Below are positions 37,901 to 43,900 of a DNA stretch of 64,000 nt, piece after piece. A program made the position numbers. The stretch comes from Escherichia coli. GTDB lineage: Bacteria; Pseudomonadota; Gammaproteobacteria; Enterobacterales; Enterobacteriaceae. The stretch is from NCBI RefSeq assembly GCF_002854065.1, contig NZ_CP024150.1, one strand, 5' to 3'. The first letter of the stretch is position 1; the number at the start of each line of letters is the position of its first letter.

Positions 37901-40900
37901 CCAGTCAATGGAGCATTCAGAGACGAACTGCGACGGAATGCCTTCCCAGTCCTGGAACATAAACTCGGCATCCCATTCATCGGCATGCAGTGCCTGACAG
38001 GCCTCGTAAAAATCCTCCCTGCCGTCAAACTCCGTCAGATCAAACCATTTGCCGAAAATGCTGCCGCAGTTGTATTTGTGATATGTACCCACGTAAACAG
38101 CCGGTGTGGTGGTCGTAGTGCTCATAAAAAATCCTCCATAGTCGATGTCGTCTGAGTTACGGCTTACGCCGTGCCGACACGACAGCCGGGCGAAAAGCGG
38201 AGGATGCAAGGGCGTCACCGAAGCCGCAGCGCAGTAAAAAAGCAGGAGCAGGCTGGACGGTTTGACGGCGAAAACTGAGCCGGAAAACGACGGGAAGACG
38301 GCGGATAACGTATGAAATAAACTGCGACCGGGTGAAGGTGACGGCGTTTACGCTTCCCTTGCATCAGCCGCGGCCCGGCTAAAGTAGCGGCACGGCGGCC
38401 GCACGATGGCAGGAACCTCAAATACGGCCTATGTTCAGAACTGAGGTGAACCCTGATTACAGATCCACAGCGGAGAAACACAATGTGCGGTCGGTTTACG
38501 CAGTACAACTCCCGCGAGGAGTACCTGGCCTTTCTCGGAGAAGAAGCAGAACGGGACATCCCCTATGATCCGGAGCCTGTCGGCCGCTACAACGTTGCGC
38601 CCGGAACCCGGGTATTGCTGCTGAGTGAACGCCGCTCGCAGCTGCATCTTGATCCTGTTCACTGGGGTTATGCCCCGGAGTGGTGGAACAAGACCGCTCT
38701 CATCAACGCCCGAAGTGAAACTGCGGCCGGCAGCCGGATGTTCAGGCCGCTCCAGGAGCACGGACGGGCCATTGTTTTTGCCGACGGCTGGTTCGAGTGG
38801 AAACAGCAAAACGGCGTGAAACAGCCGTTTTTCATTTACCGTAAGGACGGAAATCCACTCCTGCTCGCTGCCATCGGGAAACCACCTTTTGAGAACGGCA
38901 ATGACCTGGAAGGGTTCCTGATCGTCACGGCAACTGCGGATGAGGGACTGCTGGACATTCACGATCGGCGACCGCTCGTGTACTCACCGGCTGCCGCACG
39001 TAAATGGCTCAGCGAAAACACAACCGGTAAAGAGGCGGAAGACATTACCCGTGAGGGCAGTCTTTCCGCCGAAGATTTCACATGGCACCCCGTCAGCCGG
39101 GCTGTTGGCAATCCGAAAAATCAGGGGCCGGAACTCACAGAGCCACTGGCTTAGCAGACGATGAGATACCCGGTATCCACTCACAGGGTTATGCACCGTT
39201 TCTGTGGATAACCCTGAGCCTGTTTTATCCGCCAGAACAATGACCTGGCAGGAGCCGGTAAAATTCTCCTTGCAGGACGGAAAATATCTTAAATAATACT
39301 GTATATAAAAACAGGTATTTTTAGAGGTATGCCATGATCCTTTTTGTCTCTCCCGCACCAGAGCCAGCACTGTTCACCGCTCCGCTTTTCACTGAGCGCT
39401 GTCCGGCAGGTTTTCCGTCACCTGCCGCGGACTATACCGAAGACGAACTGGATCTGAATGCCTATTGTATCCGTCGCCCCAGCGCGACCTATTTCGTCCG
39501 GGCCATTGGTGATTCGATGAAAGACATGGGCCTGCACTCCGGCGATTTAATGGTTGTCGACAAAGCCGAAAAACCCATGCAGGGGGATATTGTCATCGAG
39601 GAAACAGATGGCGAGTTCACCGTTAAACGCCTGCAGCTTAAACCCCGAATCGCCCTGCTGCCGATGAATCCCGCCTACCCTACCCTCTATCCGGAAGAAC
39701 TACAGATATTCGGCGTGGTGACGGCATTCATACACAAGACGCGGGGTATGGACTGATGTTTGCTTTGGCTGACGTCAACAGCTTCTACGCCAGTTGTGAG
39801 AAAGTATTTCGTCCCGATTTGCGTAATAAGTCCGTTGTGGTGCTCAGTAACAACGATGGCTGCGTCATCGCGCGCAGTGCTGAAGCGAAACGGCTGGGAA
39901 TTAAAATGGGCGTCCCCTGGTTCCAGCTGAAGACGGCACAATTCCCGGAGCCGGTCATCACGTTCTCGAGCAATTACGAACTCTATGCGTCTATGTCAAA
40001 CAGGGTAATGTCTCATCTCGAGGAACTGGCGCCACGCGTGGAGCAGTACAGTATTGACGAGATGTTTCTGGATATCCGCGGAATAGACCGCTGCATCGAT
40101 TATGAGGACTTCGGACGGCAGCTACGTGAGCACGTTCGTTCCGGTACGGGGCTAACCATCGGCGTTGGAATGGGCCCCACGAAAACGCTGGCTAAAAGCG
40201 CGCAGTGGGCGTCAAAGGAGTGGAAGCAATTTAAGGGGGTTCTGGCGTTGTCGCCGGAGAATCCACGCCGCACGGCAAAATTACTCAGCCTGCAACCGGT
40301 CGAGGAGATTTGGGGGGTGGGAAACCGAATAGCGAAGAAGCTGAAGGTCATGGGGATCACTACCGCCCTGCAGCTATCACTGACAAACCCCACGTTTATC
40401 CGTAAGAACTTTAATGTTGTTCTTGAACGGACTGTACGGGAGCTTAATGGAGAGAGCTGCATTTCGCTTGAAGAAGCCCCCCCACCAAAACAGCAGATTG
40501 TCTGTAGTCGCAGCTTCGGACAGCGGATCACCACCTATGAAGAAATGCGCCAGGCAGTCTGCCAGTATGCCGAACGTGCGGCAGAAAAATTGCGTGGTGA
40601 ACGCCAGTACTGCCGGCACATCTCGACTTTCATCAAGTCCTCACCTTTTGCAGTTAATGAACAGTACTACGGAAACGTGGCCACTGAGAAGTTGATCACA
40701 CCTACCCGTGACACCCGAGATATCATCGCGGCGGCGGTCAGATCTCTTGACAAGATCTGGCTCGATGGCCACCGTTACGCCAAAGCGGGGATAATGCTTA
40801 ACGATTTTACTCCGAGCGGCGTTGCGCAGCTGAATCTTTTCGATGAAGTACAGCCGCGACCGCACAGCGATGAGCTGATGAAGGTCGTGGACGGTATTAA

Positions 40901-43900
40901 CCATTCGGGCAAGGGGAAAATATGGTTCGCCGGACGGGGGATTGCCCCCGAGTGGCAGATGAAAAGGGAACTACTTTCGCCAGCTTATACGACTCGCTGG
41001 GCAGATATTCCTGCAGCGAAATTGACTTGAAATTGTGGCGATTTCACCTTGAAATTCTCAACAGAAATAGCTTAATTACAATAAGTTAGATGTGAAATCG
41101 CCGTGGCGAAGTTATTGACTCAAATTTCTATCAAGGACCTCGTTGATAGCTTTGTCCAGTTCATCCTGAACCACTTTTGACATACGGCTAAACTCATAAG
41201 TCAGCGTACGCCCTTTCACACGCTTGCGCGCGAACTTGTCCTTTTCATCAAAGGTCCAGAGTGCGGAAATTACTGACTTTTCCTTAGGAGGCGGAGCTAT
41301 CAATGCCTGAGAGGCCTGAGAAATCAATTTCAGTATACTGGCTTTCTGTTCGTCTTCTGGTCGCTCGTAGTCACTCAAAATTGCATTATGCTGATCTGAG
41401 ACAGATTGAATGAGCCCTTCAGACGTTAAGCCCTTTTCACTGAGTTTTTCATTAACCTCTAACAGAATTTTATAGTCACTAAACGACAGCTCAGACTGAA
41501 CCGGGAACAGAGAAATCAATTCTTGCGGTACTGCTGCCGCCTGCAGTGCCCTGGTGACCTTAGCCTGGGATAACCCCTCCAGTTCAGCAATTTCCTTTTG
41601 ATTGAATCCAGACTCTTTCAGAGCTATCAATCTTAAGCCGATCTCCCGAAGGTTATGCTCTTTAGCTGTCTGGATATCTTTAGCCAGATGGCGAGCTTCA
41701 TCAGCTGATAAAAGTTCAGCGGTAACCATTACATCAAGGCCTGTACGGATATAAATCGCAGAGGCTCGCCGTCTTGAACCATCCAGTATCTCAATCCTTT
41801 CACCTTGCTGAATGCCAATACAGGGGAAGAACTGCTGAAACTTAATAGTCTGGATAATAGATTTCAGAGACTCCCTGGTCAGAGCAAGTTGATCTCTTCC
41901 GTTGGTTTCCTGGTTTACGAATGTCTTACTTTCAACGTCCGATGCAGGTACCCGAACAAACCTGAAGGTTACCTTCCTGCCGGTTTTTAGGGTAAATACC
42001 TGACTTCTTTGGGTGTCAGTCATCTCGACCATTGACGCCTGGGTATTTAACTGTCTGCCAATGGTTTTTCTTTTCTCATTCGACATCACATACCTCCGTT
42101 AGTACGAATGAACTCAATGCGATCAAATACGGCCTTCGCAAAGTCTTCCGCTGCTGATTTTGCGCTTTTAAGCGCCTCGGTGCTTCCATCATAAGTTGCT
42201 GGATTTGCGGAAATAACTGTGTCAAAAGTCTCCCCGCAGCGCTCGAAGCCATCCAGCCTCGGCAGAACCATGTCGAGCATATCGGCACCGAATACCTCTT
42301 TGGCCTGACTATGGCAAATTTTGTGATCAGACTTGTTCAGGATTTTGGACATAAAACCGACGTTTCCGATGAGATTGCAGGTGTGTCCATCCTGTTCGAT
42401 CGAATCAATAAGCGCAGGAAGGCTGGCTACAAACTTCAGGGAAGAATGAAAATCAACCGTTGCCGGTGGAAGAGGGGTCAACATCAGGTCTGCCGCTCCG
42501 ATGCAGTTTTTCAGGAACGCATCGAGGTGAGGACCACTATCAAGGAAGATAAAGTCGTAGTCATACCGGAGCTTGTCGATAATGTTCTCTTTAAGCACTG
42601 CATGAATATTTTGCCCTGGCAGATGTTCCTCACACAATCCCTTCCAGCCTTCAGCAAGGAATGCATCATCAATTGAAGCGGGAATAACATCAACACCCGG
42701 GATAATTGACGGCACGATGAAATCGGACAGTAATTCTTCACGAGACACGTTCTGGAGCATGGCCTGAGCTGCCGTATTTTCAACCAGGCCCACTGAATTC
42801 TCATGGCTCAGGAACATTGTCAGAGATGCCTGCGGATCGAAATCGATGGCCAGAATACGCAGGTCTTCGAACAGAAGCTGAGGATGAGCCCGAAAAGCAT
42901 GGGATAATGAAGCGGTAGAAACTGTCTTGGAACCGCCACCTTTAAGGTTACATACAAAAATAGTGAAGGCTTTATCGAAGCGATCTCTGTACTTGGGTAC
43001 TTTACGATGGAAATACAGATCGATGACGTTCTGAATCGTCATCGCGTACTTCATCGTATTGCCGGAAGGTTTCTTTTTAAAAATGTAGCCACTGGCTTCC
43101 ATTTCGGCCACAGCATACTCAACACTCCCTTTGCTGAGCTTAGGCAGCTTATACAGGGCGGCTTTGCTGTATTCCTGATAGAACTCGGTAAGCTTCAATT
43201 CCTCTTTTTGCTGGCGGATACTTTCGCTCAAGGATGTCAGAAGTTTACCTGCACGTATGGCGACTTTCCGTAACTGCTCAATATTTTCCATTCTTCACCT
43301 CATGACATTTTTTGTCATTTTGAATAAAAAGAATCATGTTGCAAGAAATAATTCATAATATTTTGATTTTGTTCTCACAGAAGGCACCGAAGATTAAATG
43401 GAGAAGAGGGCACTACGTCCACAATCATTTTTTTGACCCACAGCGCAAACCGTGAGTCTGTTCAGAGCTTGCATCTGAGCAGGCGAGGGTTGGACAAGCC
43501 CGACGGGTGCGTCAGCCTGATACATTAAGGTATGTCCCTATGGGATGACCGAAATAGACCGGTCTGACTGAAGACGATCTGGCGCAGATCCGTCACTAAT
43601 CCCTCTATCCTGGCACTCCCTGTCTGGCCATCTGCGAATACTGGTGGGGCAGGGAGGCTCCAAACTCAAGCTCTGCCTGCCACAGCGATTAAACAGCTTC
43701 ATTACCCCCGCGAATTTTCCCGTCAGATGCGCAGTCAGGGGATTTATCTGTCGGCCGCTGTCGTCAAAAGCGACATCGAGGTTGGTCCATGAGAGATAAA
43801 TATCATTGACGCCCGCACTGAGCGCCACGGCATTCCGGCCGGATCATTCCCGATCGCTCAACAAACGGTAGTTGATCTTACCCAGCAATAGTGGACACGC

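Follow-up and report, generated by a model that had tools for sequence, protein, structure and literature searches.

The window, by which we mean the whole 64-kb stretch of Escherichia coli DNA that was analyzed, carries an SRAP gene directly 5' of a umuD-umuC pair, with all three genes intact and on the same strand (Table 1). It is 100% identical to the E. coli plasmid NZ_AP027791.1, where SRAP, umuD, and umuC have already been named by RefSeq. On one side of the module, an ardA gene is the last gene of the leading-region type and is transcribed away from SRAP. On the other side lie parB and parA, and the same partition genes are found next to umuC in the Salmonella Typhimurium virulence plasmid pSLT and in Klebsiella plasmids. 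The original prediction had placed the module on a plasmid with a second ardA, and there are indeed two ardA genes in the window, both on the - strand. A second samAB-type copy is also present; its upstream neighbors are a 5'-truncated psiB and psiA, both on the - strand.

Table 1. Features of the SRAP-umuDC junction (copy 1) and of the second samAB-type module (copy 2) in the window
Feature	Coordinates	Strand	Remarks
Second ardA	about 15610-16110	-	
Second samAB-type copy, without SRAP	17716-19032	+	umuD intact, umuC truncated
Copy 2 DnaA-box repeat	17737-17745		
Copy 2 LexA box	17830-17849		identical to copy 1 box
Copy 2 umuD	17867-18289	+	intact
Copy 2 umuC	18289-19032	+	truncated at 247 aa
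ardA antirestriction gene	37619-38125	-	Pfam ArdA, E 5.7e-35; RefSeq annotation
Long imperfect ssDNA hairpin of the + strand	38132-38425	+	takes up most of the SRAP upstream region
Weak sigma-70 promoter candidate for SRAP	38406-38435	+	ATGGCA, 18-nt spacer, TATGTT
SRAP gene, YedK-like	38483-39154	+	223 aa, intact
Inverted repeat CAGGGTTAT / ATAACCCTG	39184-39216		DnaA box TTATCCACA in stem, 39203-39211, - strand
umuDC promoter candidate	39270-39297	+	TTGCAG, 16-nt spacer, AATAAT
LexA operator TACTGTATATAAAAACAGGT	39297-39316 (core 39299-39314)	+	23.8 bits on LexA matrix
umuD (samA-type)	39334-39756	+	140 aa, intact
umuC (samB-type), Y-family polymerase	39756-41030	+	424 aa, intact
parB-parA partition genes	41112-43291	-	convergent with umuC

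The SRAP product matched the Pfam SRAP family (PF02586) with an E value of 5e-51 and a score of 173.7 bits against a cut-off of 27.1, and its residues 1 to 211 aligned to profile positions 1 to 214 of 214, which is a full-length match. It also passed the NCBIfam model for the YedK subfamily, NF007413 (382.1 bits; cut-off, 349). E. coli YedK (PDB 2ICU, 6KBS, 6NUA, and 6KCQ) has the same length and aligns to the plasmid protein without a single gap, showing 68.9% identity over 222 residues. The plasmid gene is a paralogue of E. coli YedK, from which it differs in being plasmid-borne and in lying directly 5' of a Pol V operon. All 13 of the YedK catalytic and DNA-contact residues that were checked are present, namely, the catalytic cysteine immediately after the initiator methionine (C2), N75, E105, and H160, together with R4, P40, R77, W103, W106, I147, T149, R162, and P164. 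The roles of the YedK crosslinking residues have been defined (PMC6821365), and since every one of them is present, the plasmid SRAP looks functional. At 69% identity to YedK, the protein would be expected to form a thiazolidine DNA-protein crosslink to the abasic sites of single-stranded DNA (ssDNA). Codon differences from the Klebsiella copy, 18 synonymous and 12 non-synonymous, roughly suggest that the gene is under purifying selection.

The umuD product matched Peptidase_S24 (E value of 3e-25) and contains both the Ala25-Gly26 cleavage site and the Ser61/Lys98 dyad. The umuC product has IMS, IMS_C, and DUF4113 domains, the acidic residues D6, D101, and E102, and the beta-clamp motif QLNLF, and it scored 808.9 bits against the NCBIfam UmuC model, for which the cut-off is 431. 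Judged by sequence, the pair is the orthologue of samAB of pSLT (Nohmi et al. 1991, cited in PMC11047700); SamA and SamB show 89% and 87% amino acid identity to the plasmid UmuD and UmuC, respectively, and the pSLT module shares the promoter, the LexA box, and the DnaA-box repeat in addition to the parB-parA synteny. SRAP is missing from pSLT, and two small - strand open reading frames are found on that side instead. The E. coli K-12 UmuD and UmuC proteins are 52% and 64% identical to the plasmid products, and the K-12 operon has the same 1-nt overlap between the umuD stop and the umuC start codon. It is chromosomal, flanked by hlyE and dsbB, and has neither an SRAP gene nor an upstream DnaA-box hairpin. 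The LexA operator was scored with a weight matrix made from 26 literature boxes, which themselves span 12 to 27 bits, and its 16-nt core is identical to that of the K-12 umuDC operator, CTGTATATAAAAACAG. The box overlaps the -10 hexamer of the umuDC promoter candidate (39292 to 39297), and the -35 hexamer of this promoter is invariant in a four-way alignment. From these features, we predict a Pol V-type operon conferring SOS-inducible mutagenic lesion bypass. An intact SRAP gene directly upstream of an intact umuDC operon with a LexA box, as originally predicted, is thus what the plasmid carries.

The further claim, that one LexA box stands over the whole module, failed for SRAP. The box is inside the 179-bp spacer between SRAP and umuD, 143 bp 3' of the SRAP stop codon, and governs umuDC only. 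A LexA-like site was sought in the 357-bp region 5' of SRAP with the exact pattern, with CTG-N10-CAG, and with the weight matrix, and none was found; CTG-N10-CAG does not occur anywhere upstream of SRAP. The highest matrix score between 38100 and 38490 was 4.7 bits, within the first SRAP codons, and the next was -2.6. With an upstream best of 4.7 bits, when no training box scored below 12, SRAP falls outside the LexA regulon. SRAP follows a series of - strand genes as the first one on the + strand; having no upstream transcript to borrow, it needs a promoter of its own. A search for one had been proposed in the original prediction. Neither a promoter scan nor a relaxed custom scan found a consensus-grade sigma-70 promoter upstream of SRAP, and the weak candidate in Table 1, which matches 8 of 12 consensus positions, is below the promoter-scan threshold and does not amount to functional evidence. 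Its conserved form in K. pneumoniae pKPC2_020030 is ATGGCA-18-TATTTT. The long hairpin in the same upstream space folds as ssDNA at -74.2 kcal/mol (z of -4.16), a stability reached by 0 of 100 shuffled sequences. Plasmids without SRAP retain its first 272 nt upstream of ardA, and it is a candidate for an Frpo/ssi-like single-strand promoter that may serve ardA.

The reading that we prefer, with a probability of about 0.65, is that SRAP and umuDC are two adjacent, co-directional transcription units that bring LexA-independent shielding and SOS-induced bypass to bear on the same lesion. The first unit, SRAP, would protect abasic sites against both strand cleavage and error-prone bypass. Since it has no LexA operator of its own, its expression is probably SOS-independent and presumably driven by a weak promoter in the 357-bp upstream region. 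The second unit would be a self-contained samAB-type Pol V operon, with LexA bound to the operator that overlaps its -10 hexamer. Upon DNA damage, LexA would be cleaved and, on RecA filaments, UmuD would be processed at Ala25-Gly26; UmuD'2C could then bypass lesions mutagenically, abasic sites included. Both units would act on one substrate, an ssDNA lesion where a fork has stalled, for which SRAP would offer always-available, error-free shielding and Pol V a last-resort, SOS-induced bypass. The analysis itself established the gene identities, the intact catalytic residues, where the operator lies, the limits of the module, and its spread across plasmids; a biochemical hand-off between SRAP and Pol V, expression of SRAP, and a benefit to the plasmid are what we infer from this arrangement. 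Of the two observations that the original prediction had named as speaking against it, one was made: SRAP is absent from homologous modules, namely, pSLT samAB, copy 2, and some 350 of the 931 related records from plasmids. The other, independent transcription of SRAP, would follow from the position of the operator.

The SRAP-umuDC arrangement occurs on hundreds of Klebsiella, Enterobacter, Citrobacter, and Salmonella plasmids. SRAP with its flanks was covered in about 579 plasmid records, versus about 931 for the promoter with umuD, so that SRAP is found in about 62% of samAB-type modules. Such partial occupancy would fit an adjacency without functional meaning, in which SRAP would be cargo or an establishment gene in its own right, located where the leading region meets the samAB-parAB backbone at a junction prone to recombination. 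The upstream junction of the module is indeed a mosaic, the neighbor being ardA, a methylase, or psiB, and other plasmid SRAP genes sit beside repA, thermonuclease, anti-CRISPR, or unrelated genes, often with no umuDC neighbor, so a functional link between SRAP and umuDC is not obligatory. In the transcriptome study of plasmid pBIC1a (PMC6286996), a retron-type reverse transcriptase, not SRAP, is directly 5' of umuD; a chlorhexidine study reports a yedK, with the replicon not stated. However, the order and orientation of SRAP, umuD, and umuC recur in Serratia and Legionella plasmids whose SRAP proteins are only 48% and 28% identical, respectively, to the one described here, and the same order recurs in the genome-wide neighborhood analysis that named the SRAP family (Aravind, Anand, and Iyer 2013, PMC3765255; also PMC12926913). 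The recurrence thus extends over independent lineages (the present one, with 579 records, Serratia, and Legionella), and a meaningless adjacency is, in our estimate, rather unlikely. The coupling of an abasic-site shield with a translesion polymerase, on which the original prediction had built, is a recognized association (PMC3765255).

The conserved umuDC promoter/operator block starts at 39182, 28 nt 3' of the SRAP stop codon, and pSLT samAB and the second copy in the window carry it with no SRAP gene. The DnaA-box repeat marks the start of the sequence block common to all samAB-type modules and is conserved in pSLT, in a K. pneumoniae plasmid, and in copy 2. As ssDNA, it folds at -11.4 kcal/mol (z of -4.55) with the DnaA box within the stem, and this box and its homologue in copy 2 are the only two exact DnaA boxes in the window. 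No canonical intrinsic terminator was predicted between SRAP and umuD (39155 to 39333), where the stable hairpin is followed by TGTTTTAT, and no Rfam family matched in the SRAP-umuDC region. With no such terminator, read-through from SRAP into umuDC may occur and the units may be partly coupled. LexA-independent SRAP transcripts would then enter umuDC and set a basal level of Pol V, with the DnaA-box hairpin and bound LexA acting as partial roadblocks. We regard such coupling as unlikely; the hairpin is also present in the copy 2 and pSLT modules, which have no upstream co-directional gene, and therefore did not evolve as a terminator or attenuator of SRAP. A role of the hairpin as the SRAP terminator was rejected on the same grounds.

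A plasmid Pol V-like operon in which a third gene does precede the umuD and umuC homologues under LexA control is impCAB of IncI-type plasmids (TP110 family), which likewise lies at the leading-region edge with an inverted DnaA-box pair upstream. The impC gene encodes 82 amino acids unrelated to SRAP and lies 3' of the LexA box, whereas SRAP lies 5' of it. Because impC (1208) opens the trio and the imp box (L018, 1169 to 1184) lies ahead of it, all three are under one operator. The plasmid module and the neighborhood described in 2013 share an SRAP gene adjoining and co-directional with umuD-umuC, a context that PMC3765255 and PMC12926913 treat as operonic, whereas the operator position and the module boundaries here indicate a separate control region for umuDC. 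That SRAP, umuD, and umuC form one operon, repressed by the single LexA box and co-induced in the SOS response, is very improbable despite the three co-directional and closely spaced genes, the 179-bp gap with no canonical terminator, and the published use of the word operonic, given that the sole box, being 3' of SRAP, cannot block transcription from starting at a promoter further upstream, that umuDC has a complete promoter/operator block whose conservation extends to modules with no SRAP, and that the Serratia lineage has the same layout, with its LexA box (CTGTATATATATACAG) likewise between SRAP and umuD. An AT-rich, TATAAT-containing stretch precedes the Serratia plasmid SRAP.

As to location, Samuel et al. 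(2024, PMC11541004) describe umuCD as the element that bounds leading-region islands at their end and in most cases points against T-strand transcription; the term SRAP occurs 0 times in that paper. Those islands consist of an ardA/psiAB-type run ending at an opposed umuDC, and both copies in the window resemble them. In the copy 1 island, the - strand carries ardA, a hypothetical gene, and pol III theta, and the + strand carries SRAP-umuDC; the copy 2 island runs from a relaxase to ardA, psiA, and psiB on the - strand, with umuD on the + strand. Unlike the published islands, the copy 1 island is cut by IS30, and its oriT side is therefore not intact. The SRAP-umuDC pair thus lies at the far boundary of a plasmid leading-region block. 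An A-site, used by the ABC primosome, is defined by DnaA box R1 in the stem of an ssDNA hairpin (PMC6127211), and the repeat upstream of umuDC has this structure, with TTATCCACA in the stem of its ssDNA fold. It is conceivable, though we consider it quite doubtful, that the junction forms a package for the care of ssDNA at the far edge of the leading region. The DnaA-box hairpin would act in the manner of an A-site, as the signal that primes complementary-strand synthesis, LexA-independent SRAP would shield abasic sites during the single-stranded phase of the plasmid, and LexA-gated Pol V would fill what resists accurate copying.

The SRAP-umuDC pairing is common, already annotated, and already published, and it is not special to this plasmid; the genes are named in RefSeq, the SRAP family owes its name, given in 2013, to the SRAP-UmuCD neighborhood, and samAB has been known since 1991. 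Its value is little beyond correct annotation, and the useful correction is a regulatory one, in that SRAP stands outside the LexA-controlled unit. The plasmid offers a probably constitutive shield beside an SOS-gated mutagenic polymerase, not a co-induced cassette, a distinction that matters where stress-induced mutagenesis is studied with such plasmids and the host is Klebsiella or Enterobacter. A small lead, and one that could be tested cheaply, is the conserved junction hairpin with its DnaA box. In the literature searched, the DnaA-box hairpin found upstream of plasmid umuDC-like promoters of the samAB type, the Serratia type, and impCAB is not mentioned together with umuDC.

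The SRAP, umuD, and umuC genes of copy 1 (38483-41030) all retain full domains and key residues, so the part of the original prediction that called the module intact was borne out. The SRAP protein passed the NCBIfam YedK-subfamily cutoff (382 versus 349 bits), gave a gap-free alignment with E. coli YedK structures (E value of 1e-107, 68.9% identity), and has 13 of the 13 residues tied by structural work to crosslinking and single-stranded DNA (ssDNA) binding, the roles of which are described for YedK (PMC6821365). Codon differences from the Klebsiella copy (18 synonymous, 12 nonsynonymous) roughly suggest purifying selection on SRAP. 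E. coli plasmid p2017.06.05CC_1 (NZ_AP027791.1; 109,780 bp, type IncFIA/IncFII) matches the window at 100% identity, and RefSeq already labels SRAP as an "SOS response-associated peptidase family protein," umuD as "umuD," and umuC as a "Y-family DNA polymerase." The SRAP family name itself derives from a neighborhood with UmuC-UmuD, ImuAB-DnaE2, and DinB (PMC3765255), and a 2026 survey again tied UmuC-like polymerases to SRAP-like proteins (PMC12926913). Since this link is published, the pairing is not new; it is already known and already annotated.

Features of the SRAP-umuDC region (copy 1), the second umuDC module (copy 2), and related loci from other plasmids (L handles)
Feature	Coordinates	Strand	Details
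SRAP	38483-39154	+	223 aa; end-to-end Pfam SRAP match, E 5e-51
umuD, copy 1	39334-39756	+	Ala25-Gly26, Ser61, Lys98 retained
umuC, copy 1	39756-41030	+	D6, D101, E102, QLNLF clamp motif, C-terminal DUF4113 retained
Copy 2 module region	16576-19032		LexA box identical to copy 1
umuD, copy 2	17867-18289	+	Intact
LexA box, copy 1	39297-39316		23.8 bits
LexA box, copy 2	17830-17849		23.8 bits
Weak LexA-like site, copy 1	39220-39235		
Weak LexA-like site, copy 2	17754-17769		8.8 bits
ardA-SRAP spacer hairpin	38132-38425	+	About -74 kcal/mol, z -4.2
Hexamers within hairpin	38358-38384		TTGCAT-15-TAAAGT
SRAP promoter candidate	38406-38435		ATGGCA-18-TATGTT
DnaA-box inverted repeat, copy 1	39184-39216		-11.4 kcal/mol, z -4.55
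DnaA-box inverted repeat, copy 2	17718-17750		
DnaA-box inverted repeat, L011 and L012	~3003-3035		
DnaA-box inverted repeat, L005	4696-4720		
DnaA-box inverted repeat, L018 (impCAB, IncI-type)	1024-1059		
SRAP-acrF3-acrF, L006 (NZ_CP064396.1)	4001-5445		
Reverse transcriptase 5' of umuD, L020	1-1500		
Reverse transcriptase 5' of umuD, L017	1-1093		
DNA polymerase III theta-subunit homolog	36938-37201	-	Pfam DNA_pol3_theta, E 3e-35
AgrB match	4239-4326		Rfam, 41 bits
AgrB match	54180-54267		Rfam, 61.5 bits

The one specific claim made beyond the annotation, that a single LexA box governs both SRAP and umuDC, was not supported. With a weight matrix of 26 E. coli boxes, the window gave two strong LexA boxes, both TACTGTATATAAAAACAGGT, and the third-ranked site reached 13.3 bits. 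The 16-nt core of this sequence is that of the K-12 umuDC operator. The copy 1 box lies inside the 179-bp SRAP-umuD spacer, 143 bp past the SRAP stop, and overlaps a predicted promoter, TTGCAG-16-AATAAT. A repressor bound 3' of a gene cannot control initiation at that gene's promoter. Because the box is downstream of SRAP, the description "under one LexA box" is true for umuDC, whose promoter it overlaps, but not for SRAP. Upstream of SRAP, no LexA-like site was found, the best matrix score being 4.7 bits, within coding sequence, and no CTG-N10-CAG pattern was present. A Serratia plasmid, like the window, has its LexA box between SRAP and umuD, with SRAP preceded by an AT-rich region containing TATAAT. 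In contrast, the LexA box of impCAB lies upstream of impC, the first of three genes, and impCAB is thus truly three genes under one operator.

SRAP is the first plus-strand gene following a run of minus-strand genes and therefore needs a promoter of its own within 38126-38482; from this arrangement, we infer that it is transcribed on its own. Both SRAP and umuDC are oriented away from ardA. Most of 38126-38482 is occupied by a long imperfect hairpin predicted for the ssDNA form, the first 272 nt of which recur upstream of ardA in SRAP-free plasmids, and the element looks like a Frpo/ssi-type single-strand promoter for ardA. The lone promoter candidate found for SRAP is weak and is conserved in the Klebsiella plasmid. 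No canonical terminator was predicted between SRAP and umuD, so some read-through from SRAP into umuDC may occur. A pair of hexamers inside the hairpin would face SRAP when double-stranded, and a sequence similar to the hairpin element precedes impC on an IncI-type plasmid. The ardA-side leading-region genes include a DNA polymerase III theta-subunit homolog, and E. coli plasmid p503440_68 carries the same gene.

SRAP-type proteins crosslink to abasic sites in ssDNA, which protects these sites against cleavage and keeps translesion polymerases off them (PMC6821365, PMC9436759). By homology, the plasmid SRAP would form the same crosslink and give the same protection. Pol V is an SOS-induced bypass polymerase. 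The module is most likely a LexA-independent SRAP shield beside a LexA-gated mutagenic backup acting on the same lesion class.

Copy 2, a second samAB-type module in the window, lacks SRAP and has a umuC truncated at 247 aa; upstream of it, on the opposite strand, lie psiA and a psiB that has lost its 5' end. Where psiB abuts the umuD block, its first ~43 codons are missing, and a myo-inositol (iol) catabolism cluster follows the truncated umuC. Similarity between the two copies starts at 39182, which is 28 nt past the SRAP stop. A four-way alignment of both copies with K. pneumoniae pKPC2_020030 and the S. Typhimurium virulence plasmid pSLT showed a block of ~150 nt common to all four, containing an inverted repeat, a -35 hexamer, the LexA box, and a ribosome-binding site. 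A weak second LexA-like site (CTGTTTTATCCGCCAG in copy 1, CTGTTTTTCCAGACAG in copy 2) precedes the main operator by ~80 nt, and its CTGTTTT half is invariant across the alignment. The pSLT operon, known as samAB (PMC11047700), encodes UmuD and UmuC that are 89% and 87% identical to the copy 1 proteins; the K-12 values are 52% and 64%. pSLT and the Klebsiella plasmid share the order leading-region genes, (SRAP) umuDC, and parB parA, with SRAP the sole difference. SRAP is missing from the homologous umuDC modules of pSLT and copy 2 and present in that of pKPC2_020030.

In the plasmid collection, SRAP plus its flanks matched 579 records and the promoter plus umuD matched 931, both at ≥80% coverage, placing SRAP in ~62% of samAB-type modules. 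The hosts of SRAP-bearing records were chiefly Klebsiella, Enterobacter, Citrobacter, and Salmonella, and the whole module is rare among complete E. coli genomes (15 of 5,426). UmuD homologs occur in at least 5,000 plasmid records and SRAP homologs in 1,965. SRAP lies directly upstream of umuDC here and in two more of nine sampled plasmid SRAP lineages, from Serratia (48% identity) and Legionella (28% identity); the other six do not show this order. A 43%-identical SRAP on NZ_CP064396.1, an IncU plasmid of P. aeruginosa, belongs to a string of small genes on one strand and is followed immediately by the anti-CRISPR genes acrF3 and acrF, a context that is an antidefense island and not a polymerase one. 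Other Klebsiella and Enterobacter plasmid lineages have a group II intron/retron-type reverse transcriptase directly 5' of umuD, an order also seen in a published table for pBIC1a (PMC6286996). In L020, one of these loci, the intron ends ~5 nt ahead of the annotated start of umuD, and the locus yielded no CTGT-N8-ACAG box.

When the inverted repeat ahead of the copy 1 operator folds, its stem contains a perfect DnaA box, TTATCCACA. The 64-kb window has just two exact DnaA boxes, this one and its copy 2 homolog, and the box is kept in pSLT and the Klebsiella plasmid. The repeat lies ~90 to 150 nt upstream of the LexA box in plasmid samAB-type, Serratia-type, and impCAB operons; the Serratia module and impCAB likewise have inverted DnaA-box pairs there, with hairpin stability that is not significant, and such a pair is absent upstream of K-12 umuDC. 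The "A site," which nucleates the ABC primosome on ssDNA, is defined as a hairpin carrying a DnaA box (PMC6127211). By analogy, the copy 1 hairpin resembles such a site, a lead rather than a result. A literature search for "DnaA box" with "umuDC" gave one match, an unrelated microarray study of E. coli dnaC inactivation. Elsewhere in the window, both Rfam AgrB antisense-RNA matches lie near annotated DinQ-like type I toxin genes (dqlB), and these dqlB/AgrB-like loci of the plasmid are toxin/antisense pairs linked to the SOS response.
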